Positions 22,794-40,705 of a DNA stretch of 64,000 bases are shown here, piece by piece. Under the pieces are notes generated by a model, which saw only the letters and a list, made by a program, of their open reading frames with translations, was not told the origin of the DNA and searched no databases. Within the stretch, counting starts at the first letter, position 1; the number at the start of each line of letters is the position of its first letter. The DNA is taken from NCBI GenBank assembly GCA_965140415.1, contig OZ223209.1, forward strand, positions 5,216,001 through 5,280,000, written 5' to 3'. A program made the position numbers and the translations under genes. This stretch comes from Myxococcota bacterium (lineage in GTDB: Bacteria > Myxococcota_A > SURF-8).

Positions 22794-24485
22794 ATGCTCC
22801 AGAAGCATCGAGTCGCCTTTATGCTTACGCTCTTATTCCTCGTCGTGCTTTCCGCTTGCAGTTCAAGTGATGAAAACAACGATCTTGAAAATCCATGGGA
22901 AAACACTGCTACAGCGACAACCAATGAAAGCGGTGAAGTTTCCTTTTCGTCAACATTCCACGAAAAAGAATTTACTGTTGAAGCCGTCGATCAAAATGGA
23001 GATCCTGTTCAGGGCATTGATGTGACCTTCGGTGAGAATGAAGACATCATTTCAGTAGTTATTCTTGATCCGGATGAACGTTACCTTCCCTCATTGTACA
23101 TCGGTCCCCCGGAAGGACCGGAAGGAAGTATGGAGAGTTCAAGCGAAAGGAAGTTTACTGCAACCAATTCAAACCTGAAATTTAGACTTCCAAGCAAGGG
23201 AGAAGTTGTCATACGTTATGGTGCAATTGCAGTTATCAAGGCTGGTGAATATGTCGCCTCTCCCTTTATTGAGCTAGGAGAAGGAATTTACGATAGCGTA
23301 ATGTTTGATTTGAGTCATATGGATAATTCGAAACCATGGTTATACTACGTCACACCTGAGGAAATATTTGAAGATATACAACGACAGGGAAAAATCAAGT
23401 TTGCTGTTTTGGGAATTGCTAATACAATTATTTCTGGCTTTGATCTTAAAAGCGGTGCCATAAAGACTGCAAAAGGATTCCTAGCATTCATTTTAAAGGA
23501 AGGTGCGAAAGAGTGGACAAGAACCACAACACTAAAAGGCTATGAGATACTTACTGATCTAATAGGTCAGCAGGTAGCCAAAGACAAGCCCTGCTTGAAA
23601 GCAGTAATAATAATGCTGCCAACTTTATCCCGGCTTTTCCTCCCCCTCGAAATTGTCGATGATTCCTATTGCGAAGAAGAGCAAGCGGCTGATGATAATG
23701 ATGGAAGTGAAGAACTGGACTACAGGCATATTTGTGAATTCTCTATTTCGTGTGGAGAGGGAACTGATGAGGATATGCAGGATTGCCTCTCCCATTTTCC
23801 AAGAGCACTACAATATGGGATTTATACTACGGAATGTTTAAACTGCTATGCTTCCATAGATGAATGCGAAGACTTTCATACCTGCGATCAGATTATCGGG
23901 TGCAGGGCGGTTTTATGGAGCCATTCCCCTGGTTGGCCAACCGATTTCTCAAATTGTCCTGAAGATTTCTATATTTATTCCGGCCTAAATGATGATGGCA
24001 CTATCAATAATCAATCCGACTGTCAGAATTTCTGCCAATTGACCGGTCATAATATGTGTGCATATGGGGGAGACTGCGCTTGCAGCATTGATGGCTCCGG
24101 CAACTACACCCCCAATACAGATGGAGATTCAAGCAATACATGTTCAGGCGCCTGGGATTGTGACAGCGACGAAAAGTGCATCGATGGGAAGTGCGTTTAC
24201 CAGGAATGTTCGAGTTCTTTCGACTGCTCAGGAGCAGGTGAGGTTTGTGTTGAAGGATCTTGCGTTCTTCCTGTTTGCGACTTGGTGAGTCCGAGCGGGT
24301 GCTGTTCCCAGAACCCGGCTTGTTCCGACTATTGCTCGGATCATGAAGAATTACCTACAGATAAAAGTGCTGCATGTAGAGAAGGATTGGTGGAGGTAGG
24401 GTTTGCCTGTCGGTCCAACGACTACGTATACGCCTGTCACGATGACGGACGAATGTCTCAAAGCGGAAAATGTACGTGTCCGTAG
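22794..24485 (+). CDS. Cys-rich lipoprotein of unknown function
   Basis: LSAC lipobox, GGAGG RBS, C-terminal small disulfide modules (C....DC...E.C..G.C). Confidence 0.75.
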   Translation: MLQKHRVAFMLTLLFLVVLSACSSSDENNDLENPWENTATATTNESGEVSFSSTFHEKEFTVEAVDQNGDPVQGIDVTFGENEDIISVVILDPDERYLPSLYIGPPEGPEGSMESSSERKFTATNSNLKFRLPSKGEVVIRYGAIAVIKAGEYVASPFIELGEGIYDSVMFDLSHMDNSKPWLYYVTPEEIFEDIQRQGKIKFAVLGIANTIISGFDLKSGAIKTAKGFLAFILKEGAKEWTRTTTLKGYEILTDLIGQQVAKDKPCLKAVIIMLPTLSRLFLPLEIVDDSYCEEEQAADDNDGSEELDYRHICEFSISCGEGTDEDMQDCLSHFPRALQYGIYTTECLNCYASIDECEDFHTCDQIIGCRAVLWSHSPGWPTDFSNCPEDFYIYSGLNDDGTINNQSDCQNFCQLTGHNMCAYGGDCACSIDGSGNYTPNTDGDSSNTCSGAWDCDSDEKCIDGKCVYQECSSSFDCSGAGEVCVEGSCVLPVCDLVSPSGCCSQNPACSDYCSDHEELPTDKSAACREGLVEVGFACRSNDYVYACHDDGRMSQSGKCTCP

Positions 24486-24524
24486 TGAAAAGAAGACTAA
24501 TAAAGCTCTGACAGTATTGTAACT

Positions 24525-26231
24525 ATGGAGAAAAACATGAGATTTACTATTTCACTATGCTTGGTTGTCATTTCCGGATTCATCATCACTTTCTCCGGCT
24601 GTAGCGAAGGAGACTCCTCTACGGATGATGATTCTCCTTTCAGCGATGGCGACAATGCAACCACAGACGGTGATTCGTCCTCCAATCAATGTTTTCCCGG
24701 TTTTACCTGGGACCAATCAAGCGGAATGTGTTTGCCGGATACAGATGGCGACACTTCGGATGGAGATGTCGCGGATGGCGATAATCAGGTCGATGGGGAT
24801 GCGCAACCGGACGGAGATGCGACGGATGGTGATCTTCCTGTTGATGGCGATGATATGGATTGCCCGGGTTGTGAGGGATTTGCAGGCGATTATTGCATTG
24901 AATCGCAAAGCGGTCCCTATTGCTACCTGCTTTCCATCGAAAGCGCCATTATCGAAAGGACACCCGATACCGACTGTGATTACACTGTGACCGTGACGGC
25001 GAATGGTGAACCACCTGAGTCCGAGCAGGTTACCGGGTGTGATTTTGTAGATAGAGATATCATGGGTATGTGTGGCCTAACGGTCAATTCTGATGGTTCT
25101 ATTACGGTAGAATGTCCTGAGGACTGTACGCTCATTTTCACGCAGCAGGCGTGTGGCTGCGGAGATATGAGCGGTGTTCAGGAAGGGGCCGCGTGGCCGA
25201 TGGAGAGCTATTGCCAGAACCGACATGGCTTAAGTCCACAAAAAGGGCCAGACAATCCCACGTTATTATGGTCGAAGCATATCAGCAACGGAAAGTTTTC
25301 CGGTGCCGCCGTTGATAGCGAAGGGAATGTGTTTTTCAGCAGCAGCGATGGTTTCTATTCTCTGTCATCGAGTGGTGCTGAAAGATGGCAAGCAGGTGCA
25401 GGAGCCGCAAGTGATCCTCCTGCCATTGGCTCAGATGGGACGATCTATTTTTCCTCGAATAACGGTGTTTACGCTTTCTCGCATTCTGGTGAGAGAAAAT
25501 GGAAATATGATGATGGAAAATCCAATGGTTCTGCATTGATCGATAGCAACCATATCGTTTATCTCTCTACAGGAACAGGATTGAAAGGCTTCAACTCGAC
25601 AGGAGAGGTTGTTTGGGAGAGCGAAGAAACAGGTACGGTTTTAGGATCGCCCGCGATGGGTTCGGATGGAAAAATATATTACACAACAGTAGACCCACAT
25701 CAGTTCGTTGCGGTAGATACGGACGGGTCGGTTCTTTGGAAAAAATCTGTAGATGATTACCCATGGTCTGGTCCAACAATCACTCATGCCGGAAATATCC
25801 TATTTGGTGCGGCGGATGGAGTTTTGCGATGCTACTCACCTTTTGGTAATCTGAAGTGGAGCAAACAAATCGACGCTACCATGCAATCTTACCCGGCGAT
25901 TGGAGCCGATGGTACGATTTATACCGGTGGTGCCGATTTAACAGCGCTAGAGCCTTCAACTGGTTCTGAATACTGGAGTTATTCCACTAACGGTTTGATC
26001 AATGGACCAATACTCGTCGATAAGGATGGTACGATCATTTTCGCAGGATCGAATGCCAAGATAAATGCTGTCAACGCAAACGGAACAAAGAAATGGGAGT
26101 TTGATGTTGACTGCCAGGTGAGCTCTATCTCACTGGGTTTTGACCATACGATATATGCCTCGGCAACCTGTGTCGACTGGAACAATGGTGGGCAAATGTC
26201 TGGCTACTTCTATGCGATTGGGGACAGATAA
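24525..26231 (+). CDS. Lipoprotein with DGD linker and PQQ/BamB-like beta-propeller
   Basis: FSGC lipobox; repeated PAIG.DGTIY...G..KW blades. Confidence 0.85.
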   Translation: MEKNMRFTISLCLVVISGFIITFSGCSEGDSSTDDDSPFSDGDNATTDGDSSSNQCFPGFTWDQSSGMCLPDTDGDTSDGDVADGDNQVDGDAQPDGDATDGDLPVDGDDMDCPGCEGFAGDYCIESQSGPYCYLLSIESAIIERTPDTDCDYTVTVTANGEPPESEQVTGCDFVDRDIMGMCGLTVNSDGSITVECPEDCTLIFTQQACGCGDMSGVQEGAAWPMESYCQNRHGLSPQKGPDNPTLLWSKHISNGKFSGAAVDSEGNVFFSSSDGFYSLSSSGAERWQAGAGAASDPPAIGSDGTIYFSSNNGVYAFSHSGERKWKYDDGKSNGSALIDSNHIVYLSTGTGLKGFNSTGEVVWESEETGTVLGSPAMGSDGKIYYTTVDPHQFVAVDTDGSVLWKKSVDDYPWSGPTITHAGNILFGAADGVLRCYSPFGNLKWSKQIDATMQSYPAIGADGTIYTGGADLTALEPSTGSEYWSYSTNGLINGPILVDKDGTIIFAGSNAKINAVNANGTKKWEFDVDCQVSSISLGFDHTIYASATCVDWNNGGQMSGYFYAIGDR

Positions 26232-26344: not shown

Positions 26345-28009
26345 CTATTCCTCCGCCAGAACGTCGCAGTCGATGAACTGCACGCCCTGCTTGTCGCGGA
26401 TGGGAGAGGCGCAGTATTCGTAGAGATACGGCAGTTCCATCATGCGGCTGACTCCGACTTCGTGCTGGCTGCCGTCCGCTTCCGTAACCGTCTCCCGGCT
26501 CGACGCTTTGTCCGAATTCAGCGATTCACCGTCCTGCATGCTGTTCCAGGGGTCCCAGTGCGGCCATGCGCGATAATGATCGGCGGCTTTGCCGTACCAG
26601 GTCTGGATATGACGCGCCTCATCGGCGGTCAAGGGATAACCGTGGGTGGCCGCCACCAGCAGCCAGCCAGCCATGGCGGAGTCGAAGTCTACGTCGTCGC
26701 GGTGCGCAACATCCGGGTTGTGCATCAGTTCGTCGAAACGTTCCGCCAGACCGTCCATCAGCGCCTCGGCGATCTCGTCCTGCCGCCACAGAATCGCAGC
26801 GGCCATGGCACCGATATGGAAGTGGACGTAAATCTCGTAGTTGAAGAAATGAGTGGCAAAGGCCAGTTTCTCGAAATCCATTCCCGCCAGTCCGCGCTGG
26901 CAATCGCCTTTTCCATGCGGGTCACCGTCCGCCGTCAATGCCGCACCCAACTGCGCATTGCATTCGGCATCCTCACCGAAAATCAGCTCCCAATGCACGA
27001 ACGACCCCAAATCCGCCTCCGGGTTCCCTTCGCGGTCGATGTCGTACATGTGCCGGGCGACGCCGTCGTCGTATTTGGTCAGGATGTACCAGTCGTTCTC
27101 CACGATACTCTGGGTAAAGCCGCGTAAATACTTGATATACAGCCGCGCCGCCTCGCGCAGTTCGGGATCGTCGGCTTCGTAGTAGGCGCGTGTGGCCATC
27201 AGCATCGACTGGTACACATAGGGAATATCGTCTTTGCTGCGCATGTTCGACACCCAGATGTCGCCGTATTCGGGATTGTCCGGAATCTCGAAAATGTGCA
27301 CGTTCCACTTGGCGCTGGCGACGCAGGAGGGCGAATAGTCGATTTCCAACTTGCGGTCATCGACCGTGTAGCCGTGGTTGTGGTTGAAAATCGCACGTGA
27401 TTGCAAGTACTTGACGATCGGGTCTTCGCGCTCGAATTCGAATCCCAGTGACAGCGCTACCATGCCCTTCATGTACTGCCTGGCCACGTCGGCCATGCGT
27501 TGATTGCCGGTGAGCAGGTAGCCGCCGATGGCGTTGGGCAGCAGCTTCATGGTGCGTTCCGCGATGTTTTCCGCGCGGCCATGATGGAACAGCACGAGCG
27601 TGTCGCCTTCTTTTCTCATGCCGACATCCTGCCACCAGAGCTTGTAGTCCATCATGTTTTCATCGTAGCTTTTATCCAGACCGTGGCTGATACGCCAGAC
27701 CCAGTCGAAATATCCGACATCCTTGTAGAAATCCGCCATTTTTTGGCTGAAATCCGCGATTTCTTCCTGGCTGACAGGCTCGCCGGAAGGCTCGCGTGCG
27801 GGACGCTCAAAGCCCAAGGTATCCAAGGGTTTAGGTGGAATCAAGGGGTCCGGTGTTTCGCCTTCGATGTCGGTGGTATCCGAGTCGCCATCGGTAGCGG
27901 CGGCATCCTGGTCGCCGTCTATAGGAGCGACGTCCGAGGAATCTTCGTTGCAGCCTAAAAGCAACAGGGCCAGCAACAACACATAAACGGGTAGAGTTAG
28001 GGTGCGTAT
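26345..28009 (-). CDS. Hypothetical lipoprotein with DGD linker (start uncertain: ATA 28009 or GTG 27982)
   Basis: Long ORF with strong GC3 bias; LLGC lipobox. Confidence 0.75.
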   Translation of the reverse strand: MRTLTLPVYVLLLALLLLGCNEDSSDVAPIDGDQDAAATDGDSDTTDIEGETPDPLIPPKPLDTLGFERPAREPSGEPVSQEEIADFSQKMADFYKDVGYFDWVWRISHGLDKSYDENMMDYKLWWQDVGMRKEGDTLVLFHHGRAENIAERTMKLLPNAIGGYLLTGNQRMADVARQYMKGMVALSLGFEFEREDPIVKYLQSRAIFNHNHGYTVDDRKLEIDYSPSCVASAKWNVHIFEIPDNPEYGDIWVSNMRSKDDIPYVYQSMLMATRAYYEADDPELREAARLYIKYLRGFTQSIVENDWYILTKYDDGVARHMYDIDREGNPEADLGSFVHWELIFGEDAECNAQLGAALTADGDPHGKGDCQRGLAGMDFEKLAFATHFFNYEIYVHFHIGAMAAAILWRQDEIAEALMDGLAERFDELMHNPDVAHRDDVDFDSAMAGWLLVAATHGYPLTADEARHIQTWYGKAADHYRAWPHWDPWNSMQDGESLNSDKASSRETVTEADGSQHEVGVSRMMELPYLYEYCASPIRDKQGVQFIDCDVLAEE

Positions 28010-28243: not shown

Positions 28244-29563
28244 TCAACCGCAACCGCCGGTAACTTTGGCTTTCGCCCGGATCTTCACCTTGGCGTCGTA
28301 GGTATATTTCGGCCATACGGGACGATGCCCCTTGCCTTCGATGTTCGGATTCTGCTTGTCGCATTCGTAAGGAATGACTTCCTTGCAGCCACATTCGGGA
28401 TGCGCATTGTAGGCGCGTCCACCGACCGCGCGCAGAAAACGGAAACCCAGTTCTTCATCCGCTTTGCGTAGTTCCGGCGCCGCATTAGCGAGACAGGGAG
28501 TTGATTGATACTTGCTCAGCCAATTGTTGTAACCGCCTTCAACCACATAGATATTGGGCACCCCCGCCGCATACAACTCCCGATAGGCTTCTGTCGCCCA
28601 CTGTTCACCGTTGGAGATGATAAACGTAGCAGTGTTGGTCGGTTGCTTTTTCAAACGCTTGATTAACGCCGGATCGCCCGCCGTTCCTGGCTCAAGGCGC
28701 ACGGCCCCCTGCAAGTGGAAAAGGTTGAAATAGGCTTCAGGACGCACATCCAGCGTGGTTACGTAAACTCCCGGATTTCCACGGAAAGCAACCACTTCCG
28801 CCGGATGCACGTACACCGCGCGAGACTCCAGCGTTTCTCCGGCTTTCGGCTGCAACTGCTCCCAACGCTTCTCCAAACTCGGCTGACCGATCAGCAACAC
28901 AACCAATCCCACCAGCACCAGCGCGCCAGCCGCCGTCACATGTCGGCGATTGCTGAAACGCCACAATGAGCCACTCGGGCGGGGCTTATCGCCAAACACG
29001 CTTTCCGAGATTTCACCCAGGAAAAAGGCGAACAGCGCCATCAGGATCAATCCGACCAGCACCACGCCTGCATCGACGCCCAACCAGTCCATCATCGTAA
29101 AACGACCGTAATAGCTGCTGTGCCAGAAGGCATCGATCGAACCGACCCATTCACCGAACACGAAGGTGCCCAGCGTCACGCCCAGGGCGAACACCATGCC
29201 GTCGATTTTCATCGTGCTGGCCGCCACCAGGGAGGTTCCCGGACAGAAGCCGCCGATAATGAAGCCGACTCCCATAATCAGGCCGCCCACAATTCCCGGC
29301 CACAAATAGGTGGGATTGACGAACACGCGGGAAAAATCCAATAATCCCAGGGAAGTGGACAAGAAGATCAAGGTCGCCGCCACGACGATACCGGTGAACA
29401 TCACCTTTAAAACCGTCATTTCCTTCAAGTAGAACTGCGCCGCCAGCTTGCGGCTGTCACCGAATCCGGCCATTTCCAAGGTCGCACCGAATCCCGCTCC
29501 GATCAGGAAGAAAACGAGGAAATAGGTGACGTCGCTCCAGGTGCTTAAATCATAGGGTGCCAT
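28244..29563 (-). CDS. YeeE/YedE sulfur-transporter family protein fused to a rhodanese-like domain, ending in GGCG
   Basis: GFG....L...FY..., GG.I.G.G....GFCPGT motif; DVR...F...HL.GA and V.EGG...W rhodanese motifs; GGGAGGA RBS before ATG 29563. Confidence 0.88.
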   Translation of the reverse strand: MAPYDLSTWSDVTYFLVFFLIGAGFGATLEMAGFGDSRKLAAQFYLKEMTVLKVMFTGIVVAATLIFLSTSLGLLDFSRVFVNPTYLWPGIVGGLIMGVGFIIGGFCPGTSLVAASTMKIDGMVFALGVTLGTFVFGEWVGSIDAFWHSSYYGRFTMMDWLGVDAGVVLVGLILMALFAFFLGEISESVFGDKPRPSGSLWRFSNRRHVTAAGALVLVGLVVLLIGQPSLEKRWEQLQPKAGETLESRAVYVHPAEVVAFRGNPGVYVTTLDVRPEAYFNLFHLQGAVRLEPGTAGDPALIKRLKKQPTNTATFIISNGEQWATEAYRELYAAGVPNIYVVEGGYNNWLSKYQSTPCLANAAPELRKADEELGFRFLRAVGGRAYNAHPECGCKEVIPYECDKQNPNIEGKGHRPVWPKYTYDAKVKIRAKAKVTGGCG

Positions 29564-29577
29564 CTCGTGATCCTCCC

Positions 29578-30111
29578 TTAATTCCAATGCCGACGGAAGA
29601 AGTAGGCCAGCGCATAGCCGCCGCCGAAAACGGCGAACATGAAAGCGAAGCTGCCCACACTAAGCACTGCGCCGCCGCTTAATGCCTGCCCGGAGGTGCA
29701 GCCGCGCGCCATGCGCGCTCCCACTCCCATAATCAGCCCGCCAAGCAGCGCAAACACAATGCGCGTTCCCGTTTTGGCGTTCGGTCCCTTGCGCAGTTCG
29801 AATTTGAAGCGCCGGTTGAACAGACCGGAAAGCGCCCCACCGAAAAAGGTGCCAAGCAACATGTAAATGCTGGAATGATGCAAGGGGTTTTTGTCGCCTC
29901 CCGCCGTTTGCGCGAAGTAAGCAACCTGGTTGACGTGCTCCGATGCGACCAGATCCAGTACGGAGATCTGGATACGGTTGATCGCGCCGCTGGCGCCCAG
30001 TCCACCTCCCGTAATATAGAAGGAAAGGAAGAGCACTACTCCCAGTATCGTACCCGCAAGATACGGGTTCATGTAGGGACGCGCGGTTTTCTGTTTACTA
30101 TTCGCAGACAT
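29578..30111 (-). CDS. YeeE/YedE sulfur-transporter family protein
   Basis: NPYLAG, GLGASG, GG..MG.GARMARGCTSG.ALSG motifs. Confidence 0.9.
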   Translation of the reverse strand: MSANSKQKTARPYMNPYLAGTILGVVLFLSFYITGGGLGASGAINRIQISVLDLVASEHVNQVAYFAQTAGGDKNPLHHSSIYMLLGTFFGGALSGLFNRRFKFELRKGPNAKTGTRIVFALLGGLIMGVGARMARGCTSGQALSGGAVLSVGSFAFMFAVFGGGYALAYFFRRHWN

Positions 30112-30114
30112 GGC

Positions 30115-32451
30115 TTACCTCGCTGTGTTCGATTCGGAATCGGAGGCGACTTCGATATCTTCATACCCGGTGACCATCGCTTTCAGGTTGGAAGTCAGCG
30201 TATGGCCGGTGGTGATCAGGTACAGATGGGCTGCAATAAAGCTGAGCAGCAACCAGCTTCCAAGATTGTGTAACGGCGCAACCAGGCTTAACCCCTGAAT
30301 ATTCGCGGCGGTTTCCGGCCACTGCGACACGGCCCAGATCAATAAACCGGTAACGACCTGGAAGGGGAACAGCACGTTCATCAATCCCATATAGGTGATC
30401 TGCTGCAAGGGATTCAGCTTGCGTTCCGGTGTCTTTTCGATGGGATGCGGTGCACCGACGAAAATGCCGTTCAGGTAATATTGGGCCTGCACCAGCACAT
30501 CCTGAATGAACGATTCCCGCCTGGGAATGAACTGCCGGATGTTGGCAGTCGCCAGATGGTAGAAAAGAGAAAGCAGCGCATTGACGATCATAATCACCGC
30601 CAGCACATTGTGCATGTCCACGGCGAGGCGGAAGCCGAATAGGTGCAGGCTACCCATGTAGTGGATTTCCAATCCCGTCAACGCCAGCAGTATGATACTT
30701 GCAGCCATCAACCAGTGCCAGATGCGCTCGTATAGCTGGTACATATACACGCGCTTCATCTTGGCGTGCGACTGTTGCCGATGTTTGCGGGTGAAGATGC
30801 GGTAGGAAGCGTGCGCGCCCAGTCCCAGCGCGGTCATGATGAAGAAGGCCAATCCGAGCAGATCGCTCCAGGGCTGACGGTCATGCCCGAGGATATAAAC
30901 ATCCCCGCTGCGTTGCGGTGCGAAGGTCACGCTCGCTCTGTCCTGTACGATTGAGCCGCCAACGGCCAATCCGTCCGTGGACGGTCCCTGTGGGGCCATA
31001 CCTCCAACAAGAGAAGCCGTCAGCATCACCGGGCGGTCGATCGCGGTCTGCTCGCCGTGACAGCGCGTACAATCCAAGGTAACGGCGTTATGATCTTTCA
31101 CGCCGTGCGAGACAGCAAGCACATCCAGGCGCGAAACGATTTTCGGGTCGTTCACGCCAACCGCAACAAGCCGCGCCCTGGCCGCTGCGATTTCCGAGTC
31201 GTCACCAAGCTTCCATTCGCCGTCTTCCACCTTGCCGTCGTGGTCGTCGTCCAAAGCGGCAGCCAGATTGGGATGCAGCTCGCCATCGACGAAAAAGGCT
31301 TTCATCAGCAGTTCGCGAGAAAGCGGCTCATCGATTTCTTTTCCGCGCCAATACCAGCTTGTCAGCATATTGGCCGCATGAACGCGGGACTGACCGTCAT
31401 CATCCAGAGCAGTCAACAAAAACGGTTGATAACGACGAACGTAGCGAACATTGGCGACTTTTCCACGGTCCGCATCCGCGTTCCAGTATTCCACCTGCGA
31501 TCCGCCATCGGCAAGCGGCAGAGTCGCATCAATCGTGCGTGCAACGGGGGCCGTCCATTCAGGGACGTGACAGCTCTGGCAGGAAACGCGCTCCATATGG
31601 CGCTGCTTGTAAGGCAGATCCTCATGGATCACCATCGGATCGTGACAATCGGTGCACTTCGAGCTTAACAGGCGATGATCGGGTTTCTTCAGAAAGTCAC
31701 CAAGGTCCATGCGGCGCGGGTCGTTGCGCAGATGCGCCAGCGGCTCGGCTTCCTTTTTGCTGTGCTTAGGTGAATTGGCCGGGTAATGACAATCGGCGCA
31801 GGAAAGCAGCCGTTCGGCATGTACGTCCCAGGCATACGGTTTGTCGTCCTTGCCTTCAATATTCAGATAGGAATCGCGGATCGGGTGACGCGAAAAAATA
31901 ACGCCGCTTCTCCGCGTCTGACTGAACGGATCTTCATCCGTCAGCAAACTGGCTTTGCTGTCGAAATCGTTGGGGAGACGCATGGGAAAACGGTCATCGT
32001 GCGCCATACCGTGGCACATACCGCAATTTTCCGGCTGCGGCGCTCCAATTCGAATCGCCTGCTGGGGCAGCATCCCGTTTTCATCCACATCCTGCGCGGT
32101 AATCGTCCACTCGCCGCCATCGCCGTGACAGGCCAGGCAATCGACCTTGACGCGCCCCTGGTGGTGGCTGTTGTGCGAGTTGATGAACTCGACATCATGA
32201 CAGGCCGCACAGGTACGGCTTTCGTCCATGGTGGCCTTGGACACGGAAATCGGCTGGCCGTCTTTATCCAACACCATAAAAGAAGGATGAAAGCTCGTTC
32301 TGGGCATGGCCACATCGGAAATACCCGCCAACGTGTCCATTGGATCTACATGCCCGGTATGTTCTTCCGCTTCATCCTGTGCCCAAACGGCTGAAGCCAG
32401 CATAAACAATCCCATAGCGATCAAAACCATTTCCCGCATGACTCGTCTCAT
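30115..32451 (-). CDS. Heptaheme cytochrome c fused to a di-heme cytochrome b (Ni/Fe-hydrogenase b-type) domain
   Basis: Signal peptide; 7 CxxCH motifs; C-terminal ERIWHW, HN, KLNPLQQ, HN...HLY TM domain; TGATG coupling with the upstream gene. Confidence 0.9.
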   Translation of the reverse strand: MRRVMREMVLIAMGLFMLASAVWAQDEAEEHTGHVDPMDTLAGISDVAMPRTSFHPSFMVLDKDGQPISVSKATMDESRTCAACHDVEFINSHNSHHQGRVKVDCLACHGDGGEWTITAQDVDENGMLPQQAIRIGAPQPENCGMCHGMAHDDRFPMRLPNDFDSKASLLTDEDPFSQTRRSGVIFSRHPIRDSYLNIEGKDDKPYAWDVHAERLLSCADCHYPANSPKHSKKEAEPLAHLRNDPRRMDLGDFLKKPDHRLLSSKCTDCHDPMVIHEDLPYKQRHMERVSCQSCHVPEWTAPVARTIDATLPLADGGSQVEYWNADADRGKVANVRYVRRYQPFLLTALDDDGQSRVHAANMLTSWYWRGKEIDEPLSRELLMKAFFVDGELHPNLAAALDDDHDGKVEDGEWKLGDDSEIAAARARLVAVGVNDPKIVSRLDVLAVSHGVKDHNAVTLDCTRCHGEQTAIDRPVMLTASLVGGMAPQGPSTDGLAVGGSIVQDRASVTFAPQRSGDVYILGHDRQPWSDLLGLAFFIMTALGLGAHASYRIFTRKHRQQSHAKMKRVYMYQLYERIWHWLMAASIILLALTGLEIHYMGSLHLFGFRLAVDMHNVLAVIMIVNALLSLFYHLATANIRQFIPRRESFIQDVLVQAQYYLNGIFVGAPHPIEKTPERKLNPLQQITYMGLMNVLFPFQVVTGLLIWAVSQWPETAANIQGLSLVAPLHNLGSWLLLSFIAAHLYLITTGHTLTSNLKAMVTGYEDIEVASDSESNTAR

Positions 32452-33869
32452 CAGCGCCCTCCCGCCAGAATCGGATCTTGATCGTAGCCTAACGCTTTCC
32501 AGTCCATCCGCGATGCTTTCTGCCCGTGGCAGTCCGCACAATCCAGCGCTTCCTCTTTGGGTCGCACCGTGTGATTCAACGGCCAATACATCTCCGTTTT
32601 TGCAAAAGCATAGTTACCGCTGTATTCCAAGCCTACGCTTTTTGCACCCAACCGCATGGCCTGGTCCCAGTCGAAGACATGCCAGTAGCCGCCCTCTCCC
32701 GCAGTAACAGGAGGTATCAAGTAGCGATTTCCTGCATCATAGGGTTGCTTGCCACGATGCACCTTGAAGGGATGAATCTGGGCGTGTGCATCTTTGCGGC
32801 TGCCGCGTGGGTTGTTCAGGATCGTCGTACCTTCGGGATCGATTTTGTCGCCCACCAGGTAACGATCGGCGGTGTGATTGAACCAGCGATATTCCGGCAC
32901 GACTGACTGCCCGTAAATGAATTCACCTTTGATTTTAAGGTATTCGTGGGGATCTTCCTTGCGCGATGGGTCGCCCGCCTTGCTCCAGTCCCAATCCATT
33001 TTGGTGGGAGCGCGCACGGCGTGGGTGGGAATATGGCAGGTCTGACAGGCCACCCGCTTCAGATGACTCTGGATGCGTTTGTCGGTATGGATTTCTCCTT
33101 TGTGACAGGTTGTACAGTCGATACCGTTTCGGCTATCCACGCTTACGGCGATGGAACGCCCGCTGATGGCATGCTTGGGTGCTTTATGGCAATCGACGCA
33201 GAGCATGTCGTTGCCACCCATGTGAATATCCGCTTCCATATCCGGTGTATTTAACGCCACATGCAAATCGCCATGCTTGACACCCATGCCGCCACCACCG
33301 AAAAAGTGACAGCTTCCGCAATTGTCGCGCTTGGGATAACCGACGCTTTGGGCCGATGCCTGCAAATCGACAGATTTGTCCGGCATACCCGCCTTGCCCT
33401 TTATATAACCACCTGACCAGTCATGACAGACCAGACAATCGACATTGGTTTCTTTATTAAAATCAAAGCTTTCGTCTTCCCAACCATAGCCAGCATGGCA
33501 TTTGGTACAGGAAGGCCAGTTGCCGGTAATACCGATGCAGTAGTTGTTCAGAAGATTCTTTTTACCGATTTGCCGCTTGCCCGGATGATTGGGCACTTCA
33601 ACCGGTTCACCAACCCAGTTCCAATGCGCAGTAGCCATCACATCTTTGGCCGACTGCTTGTGACATTGAAGACAGGCTTTCGTCACATCCTGAGGGGAAA
33701 CGATCGGTTTGGTGAAAAAGCTGGAGTGATCCAGGTGAGCCCGATACTCAGAATGCTCCGGCTTTTCCGAAGCGAACAGAGTGGGGGCTACAAATAGACC
33801 TGCCACTACCAGACCCACCGCAAGGACTGCGCCGTACAAAGTCAGTGTTTTTCCTTTTGGCAATACCAC
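32451..33869 (-). CDS. otr: Octaheme c-type cytochrome, tetrathionate reductase (OTR) family
   Basis: 8 CxxCH motifs; HWNW, GKKN..NNYC, CTKCHAGYGW, FFGGGG.GVKHGD, WDWSKAG motifs; GTG start after AAGGAAAGGA. Confidence 0.92.
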   Translation of the reverse strand: MVLPKGKTLTLYGAVLAVGLVVAGLFVAPTLFASEKPEHSEYRAHLDHSSFFTKPIVSPQDVTKACLQCHKQSAKDVMATAHWNWVGEPVEVPNHPGKRQIGKKNLLNNYCIGITGNWPSCTKCHAGYGWEDESFDFNKETNVDCLVCHDWSGGYIKGKAGMPDKSVDLQASAQSVGYPKRDNCGSCHFFGGGGMGVKHGDLHVALNTPDMEADIHMGGNDMLCVDCHKAPKHAISGRSIAVSVDSRNGIDCTTCHKGEIHTDKRIQSHLKRVACQTCHIPTHAVRAPTKMDWDWSKAGDPSRKEDPHEYLKIKGEFIYGQSVVPEYRWFNHTADRYLVGDKIDPEGTTILNNPRGSRKDAHAQIHPFKVHRGKQPYDAGNRYLIPPVTAGEGGYWHVFDWDQAMRLGAKSVGLEYSGNYAFAKTEMYWPLNHTVRPKEEALDCADCHGQKASRMDWKALGYDQDPILAGGR

Positions 33870-33889
33870 GGTATCATTCCTTTCCTTGA

Positions 33890-34366
33890 TTAGGACAGGT
33901 TCGCTCCCAGAGGAAATTCCGTCAGCCTCGCTTCCAAAGACTGATGACAATTGGAAGCGATATCGGATAAGCGCGTTTCGTTGAAATACGAAATGATGCG
34001 CCGGTTGATATCTTTCATGCGCTCGCCGAAAATACACATCTGCGAGCCGCTATCCAAGCGGCAAGCCGGGGTTTCGAACAAGCAATGATTGCTGTTCAAG
34101 TTGCCGTCGAACACCTGATAAATTTCACTCAAGCGAATCTCAGCAGGATCTCTCGTCAGTACAAATCCACCTTTGGGACCGCGCCGCGCCTGAAGAAATC
34201 CGGCTTTCACCATTCGCTGGCAAACCTTGATCATATGGTTTTCGGAAGCAAAGCATACCCGAGCCAAGTCCCCTGCATTCACTCGTTTTCCTTCACTCAT
34301 CGCTAAATACGCCATGGCATGCATCGCCAGGGCGGTCGCATCGGATATTCTAATCAGCATCGGCAT
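33890..34366 (-). CDS. Rrf2-family transcriptional regulator
   Basis: ALHAM.YLA, SENH..KV, RGPKGGF.L, I.L.EIY; three C-terminal Cys (C-x6-C-x8-C) as likely Fe-S ligands. Confidence 0.9.
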   Translation of the reverse strand: MPMLIRISDATALAMHAMAYLAMSEGKRVNAGDLARVCFASENHMIKVCQRMVKAGFLQARRGPKGGFVLTRDPAEIRLSEIYQVFDGNLNSNHCLFETPACRLDSGSQMCIFGERMKDINRRIISYFNETRLSDIASNCHQSLEARLTEFPLGANLS

Positions 34367-34631: not shown

Positions 34632-37600
34632 ATGAAACTCTCACACGCGGTATGGGTGATGGTTGCGTTTGTGGCTTTTGTCGCCGGTTGTGAAGGGCTG
34701 CCTTCCATTGAAGTAAAAGGCGAATGCCTTTCCGACGAGCATTGCCAGCAAGGGTATTACTGTAATGACGATCTGATCTGCGTTCCCAATCCATTCTGGG
34801 GCGATTCCGATCTGACGCCGGGTGACACTCCCGATGGCGATGTAGACGGCGATAGCGAACAAACCGACGGTGACGGAGTCGATGGTGATGCCACCGATGG
34901 CGACTGGACCGACGGTGACTGGACCGACGGCGATGGAGAAATCGACCAATCCGATGGTGACTGGATCGATGGCGATGGCGAAATCGACCAAGAGTTCGAT
35001 GTAACCTGGCCCTATGCCACCTTGACGAGTTTCACTGTCACGCCGAATAACCCGACGGATCAGGGTGAAACCCTGTATCTTAAAGCCACGGCAGATACTC
35101 AAAGTGGGCAGGCGGCGCGCTTCCAGTTCGATTACCGTTACGGCGGTGATCCCTGGCAACAATTGACAGCCATGACTCCCACCTCCAATGCGTTTTTAGA
35201 ACCAGGCCGAGCGGGACTGTATCATTTCCGTGTACGTGCCCTCGACCCACTAAGCCAGAATCCTTTTGGATTCGACGACGAATCGGAACTGACGCACATC
35301 GTGTTACCTACTTCCGATGGCGATATCGAACAAGACGGTAACGAGTACCGGGCACAGATCCGCTCCTTTAACGTGGAGCCTCGCCGCGTATACTCCGGTC
35401 AGAGAGTGGGAATCGCCACCATAGCCACCGCTCCCAACCAAGTGCAATACGCCTATGCGTATCGGCTGGGAACCGCTTCCTGGCAAACATTCAAAGCATA
35501 TCCGGGACAAGCCAACACTTCCTGGGTCGCCCCCAACCAGGCCGGAACCTATCGCTTGCGCGTACAAGTGCGCGACAGTCTCAGCAATAACCAGGTAGAT
35601 GACAGCGCCTCCGTTTTAGTGCTCGTCGAATCTCAGGTGCAGTACGACTGCGAAACCGCCTGCACGCACATGCGCGAATGCGGCTTTATCTCCTCCGAAG
35701 ATGACTTCTATGAGTGCATGCAGATGTGCGACGATTATGGCTTTACGCAGGCTCAGATCAGATGTCTAAGCACTGCCGACTGTAGTGATTTAATGGACTG
35801 CTTGGATGTCGACGGCGATGTGGTGGACGGCGACGTTCCCTACTGCGACGACAACAACGAATGTACGGATGATTTCGTCACTCCTAACGGCTGTGAATTC
35901 TATCCGGTCGATGATGGCAATGCCTGCGTTGCCGACAATGGGTATCCCGGTTTCTGCGAAGCGGGAGAATGCAGATCCATCGTAGACGGCGACGAACCCA
36001 TCTGCGACGACAACAACGAATGTACCTTTGACTACTACGATCCGCGTCGCGGCTGCCGCTACGACAACATGCCCAACGGCACTCCCTGCAATGGCTCCGA
36101 TCCCAGTCGCGATTATGTCTGTCGCTATGGAAGCTGCGAACCTCAAGATATTACCTACGACTGCACCACCGCCTGCAATCACGCGGCGGAATGCGGCTAT
36201 ATCGGTCCCGGCTCTCCCATTGCAAGCAGCATCGACGAATGTATCGTCATGTGCGAAAACTACGGTCTGACACAGGCGCAGATCGTGTGCGTCAGCACCA
36301 GTTCCTGCGATGACATGTATGACTGTATCGACGTTGACGGCGACATCATCGACGGCGACGAGCCGAACTGCGACGACGGCAACCAGTGCACGCAGGATTA
36401 TTACGACCCCTATTACGGCTGCCGCTACAGCAACCTTCCCAACGGGACACGCTGCTATGGTTCCGACCCGGATCTGAGTTATAGCTGCTACTATGGTCGC
36501 TGCATCCCGAACCAAACCGAATACACTTGTGAAAGCGCCTGCGATCACATTTACGAATGCGGCTCCGCAGGAATCGACTATGACCAGTGTCTCCAGGTTT
36601 GTTACGACGCCTTTACCCAGGAGCAGATCGACTGCCTAAGCACCGCAGCTTGCGATGATCTCTACAACTGTATCTATGCAGATGGCGATGTCGTCGACGG
36701 CGACATCATTGACGGCGACCAGACAGACTGGACTCCGGCGCGCATCACCTTCTTTGGACGCGAACCCGGCGGTCTCTTATACGTCAATGAAGATATCCTT
36801 TTCAGTATTGTAGCTGAAACCGAGTATCCACCCGTTATCGAATACCGCATGGATGTCAGCACGGATTTCACCACCGGCTGGATCGAAGTCATGGATTATC
36901 CGGGTCAGGACACACTTATGGCCCAGGTCACCATGGAGGGCAATTACATCGTGCGCGCCCGCGTGCGCAATGCCGCCTCCACCGATCCGCGTGGCTACGA
37001 CGACGAAGCCTTCGTGGTCTTCGATGTCGTTGAGCATGCCGATGGCGACGAAATCATTTGCGACGACGGTAACCCCTGCACCAGAGACCTGATCAGCCCC
37101 TATGACGAATGTGTCTTCATCCTGGAACCCGACGGCACGGAATGTTCCGTCGGATCGCTCAGCGGCGTCTGCATCTCCGGTGAATGCCAGTTCGACGTCG
37201 ACGGCGACGAGCCAATTTGTGATGACGATAACGATTGTACGCGGGACACCGTTTCCTCCACCGGACAATGTCTGTTCACTCCGGTACAAGACGGTCTTCC
37301 CTGCTACGAAGGAAACGAAGCCGGTGAATGCATCCAGGGCGAATGCGAGCTCTTTGCAGACGGCGATCAGACGGTTTGTGATGACGACAACGAATGCACC
37401 GATGATTACGAAGATGCCAATGGCCGTTGTCAGTACATCCCGGTACCCGATGGTCTGATGTGCTACGACGGTCCCAACATGGGGCTGTGTATCGGTGGAG
37501 AATGCTCACCCTTTACCGACGGCGATCAGCCCTTCTGTGATGATAATAACGACTGTACAGAGGATTACGCATCTCCTAACGGTACCTGCGATTATATACC

Positions 37601-38837
37601 GGTCGATGATGGCAATGCCTGCGTTGCCGACAATGGATATCCCGGTTTCTGCGAAGCAGGCGAATGCCGTGCTTTCGTAGATGGCGATGTAATCGACGGC
37701 GATGAAATCATCTGCGACGACGGCGATCCCTGCACCCAGGACTTCTACGATCCCGATCTGGGCTGCGCGAGCATCCCCTACCCCGACGGTACTGTCTGCG
37801 GAACCGCCCCGAACGGGCAGGCTCTGATCTGCATCAGTGGTGTATGTGAATGGATCGTAGACGGCGATGTCACCGACGGTGACACGGCGGACGGTGATGA
37901 TGTGGATGGCGACACAACCAACGACCGCGACGGCGACGGCATCCCGGACGACGAAGACAACTGCCCGGACAAGCCGAACATGGCGCAGGGCAACAACGAC
38001 GGTGACGATCACGGCGACGCCTGCGATAACTGCCCCTACGCCTACAACAACGACCAGACGGATTCGGATCACGACTGGCTGGGCGATGCCTGCGATCCTA
38101 CGCCTTACAATGCCAACGTCTGCCTGGATATCGCCTGTACGGCGGACAGCGAATGCCAGCGCTTCGGCCTGATCTGCGGCGATGAAGGCTATTGCAGCAA
38201 GAGCTGCGCCAATGCAGCCTGCCCTCGTCCCTGGAGTTGCCAGGAAGGCGATGTCTGCGGTTGCCCGCCCGAGCCGCCCGATTGCCCCATTTCCTGTAGT
38301 ACTTCGAGTCAGTGCCCGGATGAGGTGCCTGTTTGCGCGGATGTCTACAATCGTGACGGCAACAAGGAATGCTCCCGCTCTTGCAGCGACGACAACCCCT
38401 GTCCGGAGGATTACCGCTGCTACCAGGGCAACTGCATTTGCGAGTATCTGCCCGACGACACCTGCACGCAGGAACTCTGCCGCGAGGACAGCGAATGCTC
38501 CGACCAGACCTGGAATGAATGTCTGATCACTCCCTTCATTCCGGAACCGATCTGCTCGCGTAGCTGCACCAGCCCCACCGACTGCGGTGGACAGTCCTAT
38601 TGCGAAGCAGGCTTCTGCCTGTGCGATCCGACTCCCGAACCGATCTGCAATTACGGAAGCTGCCTGCTCGACGATAACTGCACCAGCCAGTACGGCTCAA
38701 GTTCCTACTGCACCGGCTCCTGGCTGGACCCCCTGAATCGCTACTGCACCAAGAACTGTAGTACGAATATCGACTGTATCGCCACATTCGGTGCGGACTT
38801 CATCTGCTCCGGCGGCGAATGTCAGTGCGACGATTGA
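34632..38837 (+). CDS. Giant Cys-rich modular lipoprotein (DGD linkers, Ig-like domains, CDDxNxCT repeats, thrombospondin type-3 repeats)
   Basis: VAGC lipobox; about nine CDD.N.CT.D modules; DRDGDGIPD..DNCP...N..Q TSP3 repeats; GAGGAG RBS. Confidence 0.88.
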   Translation: MKLSHAVWVMVAFVAFVAGCEGLPSIEVKGECLSDEHCQQGYYCNDDLICVPNPFWGDSDLTPGDTPDGDVDGDSEQTDGDGVDGDATDGDWTDGDWTDGDGEIDQSDGDWIDGDGEIDQEFDVTWPYATLTSFTVTPNNPTDQGETLYLKATADTQSGQAARFQFDYRYGGDPWQQLTAMTPTSNAFLEPGRAGLYHFRVRALDPLSQNPFGFDDESELTHIVLPTSDGDIEQDGNEYRAQIRSFNVEPRRVYSGQRVGIATIATAPNQVQYAYAYRLGTASWQTFKAYPGQANTSWVAPNQAGTYRLRVQVRDSLSNNQVDDSASVLVLVESQVQYDCETACTHMRECGFISSEDDFYECMQMCDDYGFTQAQIRCLSTADCSDLMDCLDVDGDVVDGDVPYCDDNNECTDDFVTPNGCEFYPVDDGNACVADNGYPGFCEAGECRSIVDGDEPICDDNNECTFDYYDPRRGCRYDNMPNGTPCNGSDPSRDYVCRYGSCEPQDITYDCTTACNHAAECGYIGPGSPIASSIDECIVMCENYGLTQAQIVCVSTSSCDDMYDCIDVDGDIIDGDEPNCDDGNQCTQDYYDPYYGCRYSNLPNGTRCYGSDPDLSYSCYYGRCIPNQTEYTCESACDHIYECGSAGIDYDQCLQVCYDAFTQEQIDCLSTAACDDLYNCIYADGDVVDGDIIDGDQTDWTPARITFFGREPGGLLYVNEDILFSIVAETEYPPVIEYRMDVSTDFTTGWIEVMDYPGQDTLMAQVTMEGNYIVRARVRNAASTDPRGYDDEAFVVFDVVEHADGDEIICDDGNPCTRDLISPYDECVFILEPDGTECSVGSLSGVCISGECQFDVDGDEPICDDDNDCTRDTVSSTGQCLFTPVQDGLPCYEGNEAGECIQGECELFADGDQTVCDDDNECTDDYEDANGRCQYIPVPDGLMCYDGPNMGLCIGGECSPFTDGDQPFCDDNNDCTEDYASPNGTCDYIPVDDGNACVADNGYPGFCEAGECRAFVDGDVIDGDEIICDDGDPCTQDFYDPDLGCASIPYPDGTVCGTAPNGQALICISGVCEWIVDGDVTDGDTADGDDVDGDTTNDRDGDGIPDDEDNCPDKPNMAQGNNDGDDHGDACDNCPYAYNNDQTDSDHDWLGDACDPTPYNANVCLDIACTADSECQRFGLICGDEGYCSKSCANAACPRPWSCQEGDVCGCPPEPPDCPISCSTSSQCPDEVPVCADVYNRDGNKECSRSCSDDNPCPEDYRCYQGNCICEYLPDDTCTQELCREDSECSDQTWNECLITPFIPEPICSRSCTSPTDCGGQSYCEAGFCLCDPTPEPICNYGSCLLDDNCTSQYGSSSYCTGSWLDPLNRYCTKNCSTNIDCIATFGADFICSGGECQCDD

Positions 38838-40240: not shown

Positions 40241-40705
40241 ATGAAATTGATTTCATCGACTTGCCTGTTGTTGCTGGCGCTGCTGATATGCAGTTCCGGT
40301 TTATGCGAAGAGGCTCATTACCTCTATCTGATCGGGTTGACGGACAATGGCGTCACGGTGGACGGTGTTCGAAAAGTGGGGCAGGCGCTACCCAAGCAAC
40401 GCGGTGAACTGCCACAGCGCGCCTTTCGTATCCAGTTACTCGACCCGAGCGGAAAAACCATCTTCACCACCAGCAAGCGCGATCCACGTCGATTGACGGT
40501 CCCGTTACCGCTGAACGGCCAGCCGGATCATTCCGCCGTACAGCGCGAGAAGGGCTCTATGCTGCTGCATCTTCCGCTTCATGCCGACGGTGCGAAACTG
40601 GTATTTGAAAAGCGTGATATCCAACCCGGTAGCACTCCGCTAAAAGCGGAGTATGTTCCCTTCGCCAGTGTCATTCTCTCCGTACCGAAGGAGGATGTGC
40701 AATGA
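40241..40705 (+). CDS. Hypothetical secreted protein, coupled to the M64 peptidase gene
   Basis: Signal peptide, AGGAAGGG RBS, ATGA overlap with the next gene. Confidence 0.7.
   Translation: MKLISSTCLLLLALLICSSGLCEEAHYLYLIGLTDNGVTVDGVRKVGQALPKQRGELPQRAFRIQLLDPSGKTIFTTSKRDPRRLTVPLPLNGQPDHSAVQREKGSMLLHLPLHADGAKLVFEKRDIQPGSTPLKAEYVPFASVILSVPKEDVQ

Follow-up and report, generated by a model that had tools for sequence, protein, structure and literature searches.

The window analyzed here, 64,000 nucleotides of contig OZ223209.1 from a Myxococcota bacterium (positions 5,216,001 to 5,280,000), holds a row of minus-strand genes for an Rrf2-family regulator, an OTR-type octahaem cytochrome c, a multihaem cytochrome c fused to a cytochrome b domain, and the two halves of a split YeeE transporter, YeeE-A and YeeE-B (Table 1). 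The last gene of this row, YeeE-B, is the subject of this study. Its product combines a YeeE half, an extra transmembrane helix, a rhodanese domain and a tail that ends in K-V-T-G-G-C-G. There is little doubt about the anatomy of this arm-bearing protein, and the arm itself, its conservation, its periplasmic placement and its constant gene neighbourhood emerge directly from the analysis. As to function, we lean toward the view that the module is a covalent sulfur-carrier arm like those of SoxY and DsrC, with an unrelated scaffold and a tether at the mouth of the channel, where it would link OTR to the channel.

The open reading frame (ORF) of YeeE-B (28244..29587, minus strand) encodes 447 residues if translation starts at a TTG codon. 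The real start is likely the ATG at 29563, as it follows a GGGAGG Shine-Dalgarno sequence 8 nt upstream and yields the 439-residue form of the gene caller (P0001); this ATG lies 15 nt after the stop codon of YeeE-A. In the 447-residue numbering the span 28244-28830 comprises residues 253-447 and the stop codon. A whole-protein scan against Pfam (E <= 0.01) returned two families alone, Sulf_transp for residues 50-232 (49.4 bits, cut-off 27, profile positions 12-192 of 310) and Rhodanese for residues 278-358 (44.4 bits, cut-off 22.2), and assigned no family to the tail, residues 359-447.

The first-pass annotation had read the end of the protein as K-A-K-V-T-G-G-C-G followed by a stop, and this is what the sequence holds: the GGCG codons occupy 28247-28258, with Cys446 encoded at 28250-28252 and the TGA stop codon at 28244-28246. 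A phmmer search with the soluble module yielded 242 proteins at E <= 1e-3 (112 at <= 1e-10); the best 150 of the 242 were used, and 154 proteins were considered in all. The chain ends in GGCG in 98 of these, in GGCGG in 17, and in another motif with a Cys among the last three residues in 12, with variants that include GGCS, GGCGA/S, GLCG/S and SGCG. Among the other 27, most look like short fragments or tails shifted out of frame, and two (P0122 and P0153) are long, unrelated rhodaneses; P0037 and P0069, both of this group, stop exactly at the GG ahead of the Cys position. Residues 255-447, used as query in a word-index search, matched 4 proteins out of 581 candidates; these 4 each end in GGCG and carry S-N-(G/D)-E. 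Across the 42 aligned sequences GGCG is invariant, at a mean column identity of 37%.

Genomic loci gave the same picture. A same-phylum sample of 401 genomes contained 31 with a strong match to the module (E <= 3e-36), and about 19 kb were examined around 20 of these. In addition, a scan of one genome per species, with a pattern inside the rhodanese domain derived from an 8-row alignment, returned 359 related stretches, the best 80 of which were analyzed; they belong to metagenome-assembled genomes (MAGs) of Anaerolineae and other Chloroflexota, Planctomycetota, Desulfobacterales, Myxococcota, Gemmatimonadota and Zixibacteria. The resulting 100 loci, many of them from related Anaerolineae MAGs, all encode a Cys at one of the last three positions; GGCG or GGCGG forms the end of 96. 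All 80 loci of the pattern scan end in a terminal Cys motif, a count that is independent of the tail because the pattern lay inside the rhodanese domain. We take the terminal Cys to be under strong selection while the tail around it varies.

Further cysteines in the linker, which the first-pass annotation had listed with the arm, are indeed present (TPC, C365; ECGC, C399 and C401; YEC, C409), but they do not form part of the conserved device. Among 119 homologues in which the tail could be anchored, 74 have no extra Cys, 11 have one, 23 have two, 4 have three and 7 have four. As even counts are favoured and 74 of the 119 have none, these residues suggest clade-specific or optional periplasmic disulfides, and a part in the mechanism was rejected for this lack of conservation.

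Cys-tipped tails were also seen in more distant relatives. L133-L136 (e.g. L134:1450-2112) are members of about 216-221 residues with a polybasic end ...KKKLKGC, where the Gly-Gly pair is lost and Cys is retained as the very last residue; the stop codon of a YeeE-like ORF lies about 570 nt away on the same strand. A further stretch, L138:125-4662, encodes a PDO-like protein of the metallo-beta-lactamase fold with rhodanese domains, a 199-residue rhodanese ending in ...KKKSAGC, a YeeE-A-like gene, and a 667-residue YeeE-B that carries three fused rhodanese domains and retains an intact CRTGHQ loop in one. Since both cases combine YeeE with Cys-tailed rhodaneses, periplasmic rhodanese folds with a Cys at the tip of the tail seem to make up a wider theme, of which the OTR cassette is the most uniform form. 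P0050 (244 residues) joins an OTR-like N-terminus (..CLTCH..IGKKNLIDNFC) to an arm end (..KVKLQNKAAVKGGCG); it is probably a chimeric gene call or a misassembly that again places OTR beside the arm.

The rhodanese domain itself has lost its catalytic residue. As evidenced by phmmer alignment, the catalytic Cys of solved rhodaneses (6mxv and YnjE, 2wlr) falls on the second Ile of F-I-I, and the CX4R loop is replaced by I-S-N-G-E-Q, with neither Cys nor Arg; the missing Cys had been noticed at first pass. This extends to the whole family: in a MAFFT alignment of 127 Cys-tailed homologues the catalytic column holds V in 54, M in 40, I in 16, A in 6, L in 6 and T in 3, with two gaps and not a single Cys. 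The positions that follow are S (89), N (107), D (73) or G (33) and E (112), no Arg closes the loop, and the family consensus reads (V/M/I)-S-N-(D/G)-E. With 0/127 homologues retaining the catalytic Cys, the Cys-less state is ancestral to the family, and the conservation of the S-N-(D/G)-E loop in spite of the loss of the Cys suggests that the fold was retained for a role other than classical sulfur transfer. The checks of conservation proposed at first pass, for the terminal GGCG and for the missing rhodanese Cys, both come out in favour of the first-pass observation.

An AlphaFold2 (AF2) model of the soluble module (residues 255-447, 42 sequences) shows a rhodanese alpha/beta fold with a mean per-residue confidence (pLDDT) of 90.5 and a pTM of 0.88. 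Foldseek matched the model to single-domain rhodaneses alone, over about 100 aligned columns, and a VIA structure search against 48,161 chains was headed by 2hhg (Z 11.0, root-mean-square deviation (rmsd) 2.1, 106 aligned), with 41 chains at Z >= 8. Note that the matches of both programs cover residues 1-145 of the soluble model, while the tail comprises model residues 146-193. A search with the full-length model likewise retrieved rhodaneses alone, over residues 243-396. In the model the tail has little regular structure, with two 3-residue strands and one short helix. Its confidence is uneven: pLDDT is 63-78 for residues 141-170 (soluble-model numbering), which include the clade-specific Cys-rich insert, reaches 96 for residues 171-180, and falls to 77 and then 61 over the last 13 residues. 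K179 and V180 are at least 90% conserved in the 42 sequences. From the model, segment 171-180 (YTYDAKVKIR) probably packs on the domain and anchors the arm; with a pLDDT of 96 here and low values beyond, the tail would consist of a docked anchor followed by a free arm of about ten residues. The former rhodanese pocket may, speculatively, dock a partner or the often basic arm.

For the orientation of the module in the membrane we relied on the Pfam assignment of the two halves, the published topology of YeeE and the loop charges. In the YeeE structure the N-terminus is outside and the C-terminus inside, and H1-H6 are inverted relative to H8-H13 via H7 (PMC7449682). PmpB-type halves resemble the N-half of YeeE and PmpA-type halves the C-half (PMC11582611). 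In the full-length AF2 model of our protein (35 sequences, mean pLDDT 86.4), helices 19-39, 45-52, 58-79, 95-112, 116-124 and 128-155 show the long-short-long order of H1-H6 two times; helix 173-198 is H7-like, and the extra helix 214-233 precedes the soluble domain. Averaged over 35 fused homologues, the net charge is -0.83 for the N-terminus, -0.97 for the loop between transmembrane helices 2 and 3 and -1.63 for that between helices 4 and 5; the loop from H7 to the extra helix has a mean of 5.03 Lys plus Arg and a net charge of +2.97. An outside N-terminus, six crossings and these positive-inside charges place the rhodanese module in the periplasm. The stand-alone forms of the module (about 200 residues) agree: 45 of 52 begin with M-K/R and a hydrophobic stretch ending in G(Q/E)P(T/S), and as the same motif ends the extra helix here (LLIGQPS), their N-in/C-out anchor supports a periplasmic module. 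Proteins with c-type haems, OTR included, mature in the periplasm. The arm is thus predicted to lie on the same side of the membrane as OTR and the periplasm-facing Cys of YeeE.

OTR had been named at first pass as a possible recipient of sulfur from the arm, and as a neighbour it proved constant. All 20 same-phylum loci encode OTR, the multihaem-c/cytochrome-b protein, YeeE-A and YeeE-B with the module, in that order, and OTR, the multihaem protein and both YeeE halves are found in 75/75 loci with at least 5.5 kb of upstream DNA. The remaining 25 of the 100 loci are cut by contig ends; OTR is still visible in 8 of them. The module is fused to YeeE-B in 85 of the 100 loci and encoded by a separate ORF directly downstream in 15, two of which (L079 and L119) look like interrupted fused genes. 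Eight CXXCH motifs are present in all 74 OTR homologues that cover the query. Within the 401-genome sample, 30 of the 31 module-bearing genomes encode OTR, the exception (G273) carrying the module on a contig of about 4 kb. An Rrf2 homologue lies upstream in 4 of the 20 same-phylum loci (L031, L032, L036 and L043), so that the regulator is not core to the cassette. In one Ardenticatenaceae MAG a second OTR-like ORF (L121:9683-12073, E 2e-122 to the OTR of the window) lies about 1 kb downstream of the arm gene.

Residues of likely functional weight are retained in both the channel and OTR. By phmmer, C138 of YeeE-A aligns with C293 of Spirochaeta thermophila YeeE (8k1r, 6leo), a periplasm-side residue that contacts thiosulfate and is essential (PMC7449682); C91 and C293 are both reported as functionally essential (PMC7449682, PMC11582611). 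C115 of YeeE-B, in the motif GGFCPGTS, is invariant in 35/35 sequences and should, by its position in the N-half, correspond to C91; the membrane part of YeeE-B gave no phmmer match to PDB sequences at E <= 1 and hence no residue-level alignment to C91. In OTR, K70 and C78 of the mature segment align with Lys56 and Cys64 of 1SP3, and both are invariant in 37/37 cassette OTRs; Lys56 is the haem-2 ligand (PMC3769277). A complex prediction for OTR with the rhodanese-arm domain scored 0.01 and 0.00 against a mark of 0.32 and is evidence neither way.

One relative points to a selenocysteine (Sec) at the tip of the arm. In the metagenomic locus L137 (1582-1613), 74% identical to P0069, the gene ends ...GGT GGT GGC TGA GGG TAA, with the TGA in register with the arm Cys; read as Sec, the chain would end G-G-G-U-G-stop. 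It is this match of TGA, Gly codon and stop to the GG-C-G-stop register that suggests a Sec. A 7-bp hairpin starts 12 nt past the TGA and presents a loop G-U at +23/+24 from the U of UGA, a spacing that we take to resemble the selenocysteine insertion (SECIS) minihelix of E. coli fdhF; the folding z-score of the region, -0.75, is not significant. In a sample of 301 genomes from a second phylum, 6 had a match at E <= 1e-20, none with an in-frame TGA stop. Cys/Sec exchange is typical of redox-active or nucleophilic cysteines.

Coordinates of the operon and of the parts of YeeE-B are collected in Table 1.

Table 1. Features of the OTR/YeeE operon in the window, in order of transcription
Feature	Coordinates	Strand	Evidence
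Rrf2-family regulator, first gene of the row, C109-x6-C116-x8-C125	33890..34408	-	Pfam Rrf2, 87.9 bits
OTR-type octahaem cytochrome c	32451..34037	-	TIGR04315, 542.6 bits (cut-off 375), residues 103-518; 8 CXXCH
Multihaem cytochrome c (7 CXXCH) fused to cytochrome b561/PhsC-like membrane domain	30115..32451	-	Pfam Ni_hydr_CYTB, 91.6 bits, residues 616-807
YeeE-A, 177 aa, C-half-like (PmpA-like) piece of split YeeE; sole Cys C138 in RGCTSGQ	29578..30111	-	Pfam Sulf_transp, 77.4 bits, positions 169-309
YeeE-B membrane part (N-half-like, PmpB-like), helices matching H1-H7, single membrane Cys C115 in GGFCPGTS	28994..29563	-	Pfam Sulf_transp, AF2 helices
Basic loop, predicted cytoplasmic (..DKPRPSGSLWRFSNRRH..)	28949..28993	-	Loop charges, 35 fused homologues
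Extra transmembrane helix, residues 214-233, ends L-I-G-Q-P-S, predicted to return the chain to the periplasm	28889..28948	-	AF2 helix
Rhodanese-homology domain without catalytic Cys	28502..28825	-	Pfam, AF2 model, structure matches
Former active-site loop I-S-N-G-E-Q	28601..28618	-	Alignment to catalytic Cys of 6mxv, 2wlr
Conserved tail segment Y-T-Y-D-A-K-V-K-I-R, pattern (F/Y)-x-x-K-V-K	28286..28315	-	pLDDT 96, conservation
Flexible arm A-K-A-K-V-T-G-G-C-G	28247..28285	-	Low pLDDT, conserved GGCG
Terminator-like hairpin, 8 pairs (6 G-C), then T-run TTTTTTAT, about 25 nt past the stop codon	28196..28219	-	Hairpin search

The genes of the operon are tightly packed. The OTR stop codon overlaps the ATG of the next gene by 1 nt, YeeE-A starts 3 nt past the stop of the gene upstream of it, and from this spacing we regard the genes as translationally coupled; the hairpin after YeeE-B appears to mark the end of the operon. 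The OTR frame is listed from a GTG codon, with a hydrophobic signal or anchor ahead of the mature part, and its true start is probably later; its product matches 1SP3 with an E value of 1.6e-136. The multihaem-c/cytochrome-b fusion, a putative quinol dehydrogenase, scored 125.8 bits against NF011582 (thiosulfate reductase cytochrome b), below the cut-off of 204. No TusA/YeeD gene is adjacent to the cassette, and the sole TusA match in the genome lies about 3 Mb away. The same genome contains a second match to the OTR family (C1:1966612-1967853, 496.5 bits, profile positions 2-429) inside a frame of 1086 residues, which suggests a fused, longer form; OTR-paralogue frames of about 1070 residues also occur in four further genomes (G018, G048, G024 and G030), and none adjoins an arm gene.

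Outside the operon, a 545-residue lipoprotein-like ORF (26345-27982, minus strand) with an LLGC lipobox-like N-terminus and an acidic D-G-D stretch lies directly downstream of the terminator; it matches no Pfam family, and a promoter-like site precedes it at 28089-28060. Beyond it, two adjacent plus-strand genes (22794-26231) encode predicted lipoproteins or secreted proteins of 563 and 568 residues with acidic D-G-D repeats and many Cys, the larger a PQQ/BamB-like beta-propeller, the smaller without a Pfam family. Divergent from the operon, a plus-strand ORF of 1401 residues (34632-38837) has weak repeat matches alone (Dicty_CTDC, Y_Y_Y); a rhomboid-family gene (38922-40184) and an M64-like peptidase (40702-42285) come after it.

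In the mechanism that we propose, a sulfur species would bind to the arm thiol as a persulfide or S-thiosulfonate, a reaction that thiols undergo spontaneously when they meet tetrathionate or polysulfide. The loaded arm would then present the bound sulfur to periplasmic OTR, which would draw electrons from quinol via the multihaem-c/cytochrome-b protein, and the product, destined for import, would be released at or handed to the Cys of YeeE-A that is equivalent to C293 and faces the periplasm. The resemblance of the cytochrome b/multihaem partner to quinol-oxidising thiosulfate reductase subunits suggests the reductive direction, from menaquinol to OTR. On balance, a covalent carrier strikes us as the most economical reading of an outward-facing, tethered, flexible arm whose terminal Cys is the sole conserved reactive group. 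We raise more tentatively, as a possibility that we would not call probable, that the substrate of this OTR clade is sulfur held covalently on the Cys or Sec tip of the arm, and that the cassette is a reductive, quinol-driven counterpart of Sox. Here tetrathionate or polysulfide would react with the arm spontaneously and so load it, OTR would reduce the protein-bound S-thiosulfonate or persulfide, and the product would pass straight into the YeeE pore.

Several points weigh against a covalent carrier that connects OTR and channel. Loading of the arm with a covalent adduct, the kind of sulfur carried, the direction in which electrons flow and a contact of the arm with OTR or the channel cysteines are steps that we infer. 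Because the scaffold has no PF13501 match, the analogy with SoxY is limited to a four-residue motif, where it stands and how flexible it is. Judging by its acidic S-N-D/G-E loop, the former rhodanese pocket would hardly make an anion cradle for a persulfide or thiosulfonate. The terminal motif is missing from 27 of the 154 homologues, among which there may be true tail-less members, and Sec decoding of the TGA in L137 is a candidate that the register suggests, the hairpin being equally explicable as a terminator. Co-occurrence in an operon does not equal contact, and the loci are not phylogenetically independent, with many related Anaerolineae MAGs among them. In addition, 11 of the 41 OTR-bearing genomes in the 401-genome sample lack the module, and the genome of the window has its second OTR paralogue elsewhere; the OTR family thus does not need the arm, and while the module implies OTR, the converse fails.

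The strongest competitor, to which we give a minor but real share, is that the arm serves the channel alone: it would capture thiosulfate or zero-valent sulfur and pass it by thiol exchange to Cys138 of YeeE-A and then Cys115 of YeeE-B, while OTR merely supplies the species nearby (e.g. thiosulfate from tetrathionate) and never touches the arm. The arm is, after all, tethered to YeeE-B in 85 of the 100 loci and otherwise encoded directly after it; each channel half has exactly one Cys, in YeeE-A the counterpart of the essential C293 and in YeeE-B, by position, the presumed counterpart of the essential C91 (PMC7449682, PMC11582611), a PmpAB-type split YeeE is reported to import zero-valent sulfur (PMC11582611), and neither L138, with its YeeE-B and active rhodaneses, nor L133-L136, beside their Cys-tailed rhodaneses, show an OTR in the stretch seen. 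Full-length YeeE, however, works without such an arm and its known YeeD/TusA-like partner is cytoplasmic (PMC11582611, PMC13047784), and the presence of OTR and the quinol dehydrogenase in 75/75 loci is tighter than expected for a mere supplier of substrate. We consider it unlikely that the arm is a redox or regulatory thiol that is bridged reversibly, by a disulfide or persulfide, to a channel Cys or the non-haem Cys of OTR, gating transport or resetting an oxidised Cys. Such a role would suit a catalytically dead, docking-type rhodanese module, the invariant non-haem C78 of OTR (C64 of 1SP3; 37/37) and the replacement of the terminal Cys by a candidate Sec in L137, as in many thiol-disulfide redox proteins; but no thioredoxin- or DsbD-like reductant is encoded among the four conserved cassette genes (the other flanking ORFs were not clustered), and a GG-flanked Cys on a terminal arm is a hallmark of the cargo carriers SoxY and DsrC.

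The two remaining explanations carry far less weight. That the terminal Cys is a metal or haem ligand, either capping the Lys-ligated haem of OTR at its open site or sharing a metal with the acidic S-N-D-E loop, is very improbable: the loop (N in 107/127, E in 112/127) does suit a cation better than an anion, and Cys-ligated haems carry out thiosulfate and tetrathionate chemistry in TsdA and SoxXA, but conserved His or Cys residues are otherwise absent from the tail, any second Cys is missing in 74 of 119, and a single thiolate on a floppy arm makes a poor metal site. We give almost no credence to GGCG as a sorting or processing signal or a chance motif unrelated to sulfur chemistry, in spite of the rhomboid-family gene in the window and the existence of GlyGly-type C-terminal signals. 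The terminal Cys is present in 100/100 loci over several phyla, it is the Cys and not the Gly pair that stays constant in the distant members ending in KGC, and the TGA variant of L137 likewise speaks against it. A GlyGly-CTERM/rhombosortase signal was rejected, as it needs a hydrophobic helix and a basic tail after the GG; here no hydrophobic segment follows, and the protein stops one residue past the Cys. We also rejected a MoaD/ThiS-like C-terminal thiocarboxylate, for which fold and compartment are wrong and the chain does not end in GG.

The accessible literature searched, with supplementary tables and subscription journals outside its scope, holds no description of the Cys arm or of the four-gene cassette. 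What would be new, by a reading that we hold with modest preference, is a transporter-tethered sulfur carrier whose swinging arm sits on a new scaffold. If true, the "Gly-Gly-Cys swinging arm" known from SoxY would have a second scaffold of independent origin, this would be the first such arm built onto a transporter, and it would give a function to catalytically dead periplasmic rhodanese domains. The crystal structure of OTR has been known since 2004, and a constant, physically plausible partner makes its cellular role testable. Should the more tentative idea of a reductive Sox counterpart hold, many anaerobic phyla would couple their import of sulfur to respiration on sulfur compounds. The cassette occurs widely among uncultured Chloroflexota, Planctomycetota, Desulfobacterota, Myxococcota, Gemmatimonadota and Zixibacteria, and it may matter for the cycling of sulfur intermediates in anoxic habitats.

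Among known systems, SoxY is the closest in its design. This carrier subunit of SoxYZ (PF13501), from periplasmic Sox thiosulfate oxidation, bears a C-terminal GGCGG swinging arm on an immunoglobulin-like beta-sandwich fold. The likeness to SoxY drawn at first pass survives for the terminal motif and fails for the domain, as the scaffold here is a rhodanese fold with no match to the profile; PF13501 matched neither the target protein nor anything else in the genome, which is 93.7% complete, while a control genome was positive. In both systems a Gly-flanked Cys stands at the extreme C-terminus of a periplasmic protein, on a flexible arm after K-V-(T), and is encoded together with presumed redox enzymes. 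They differ in that the arm extends here from a rhodanese fold through a mostly non-regular extension and is membrane-tethered to a transporter, while SoxY is soluble and pairs with SoxZ; the usual ending, GGCG, is one Gly shorter; and the partners are OTR and a quinol dehydrogenase instead of SoxXA, SoxB and SoxCD, none of the four conserved neighbours being a Sox protein. DsrC/TusE likewise has a near-terminal Cys on a mobile C-terminal arm, which enters the active site of a partner enzyme. DsrC is cytoplasmic, however, with a different fold, two arm Cys and DsrAB as its partner.

The nearest functional analogue among the rhodaneses is Sud of Wolinella succinogenes (1qxn), which was also among the VIA matches of the soluble model (Z 7.3, rmsd 4.0, 114 aligned). 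It is periplasmic, consists of a single rhodanese domain and delivers sulfur to a respiratory reductase linked to quinol. Sud carries its sulfur on the canonical loop Cys, which is absent here, where the sole conserved Cys is C-terminal; it is soluble and its partner is Psr, in contrast to the OTR cassette. For the channel, PmpA/PmpB and full-length YeeE (TsuA; 6leo, 8k1r) are the appropriate comparison, as the two half-size genes correspond to the N- and C-halves with one Cys each. PmpA and PmpB have about 130 residues and four helices (PMC11582611), while the N-half here adds the H7-like helix, a sixth helix and a periplasmic module of about 210 residues.

The neighbour gene is a clear family member of the OTR of Shewanella oneidensis (1SP3, TIGR04315), with a profile score of 542.6 bits, eight CXXCH motifs and the equivalent of Lys56. 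OTR, which reduces tetrathionate, nitrite and hydroxylamine in vitro, has been treated as acting on these compounds in their free form, with an unclear physiological role (PMC11237559, PMC4911364), and the accessible text of these two papers makes no mention of a constant companion channel with a Cys arm. OTR does adjoin a cytochrome b in Thermosulfurimonas (PMC4911364), and in lucinid symbionts a divergent soxY lies directly downstream of otr (PMC11237559). We count this last pair, an independent precedent that links OTR with a GGCGG carrier, in favour of the arm of YeeE-B as a sulfur carrier.

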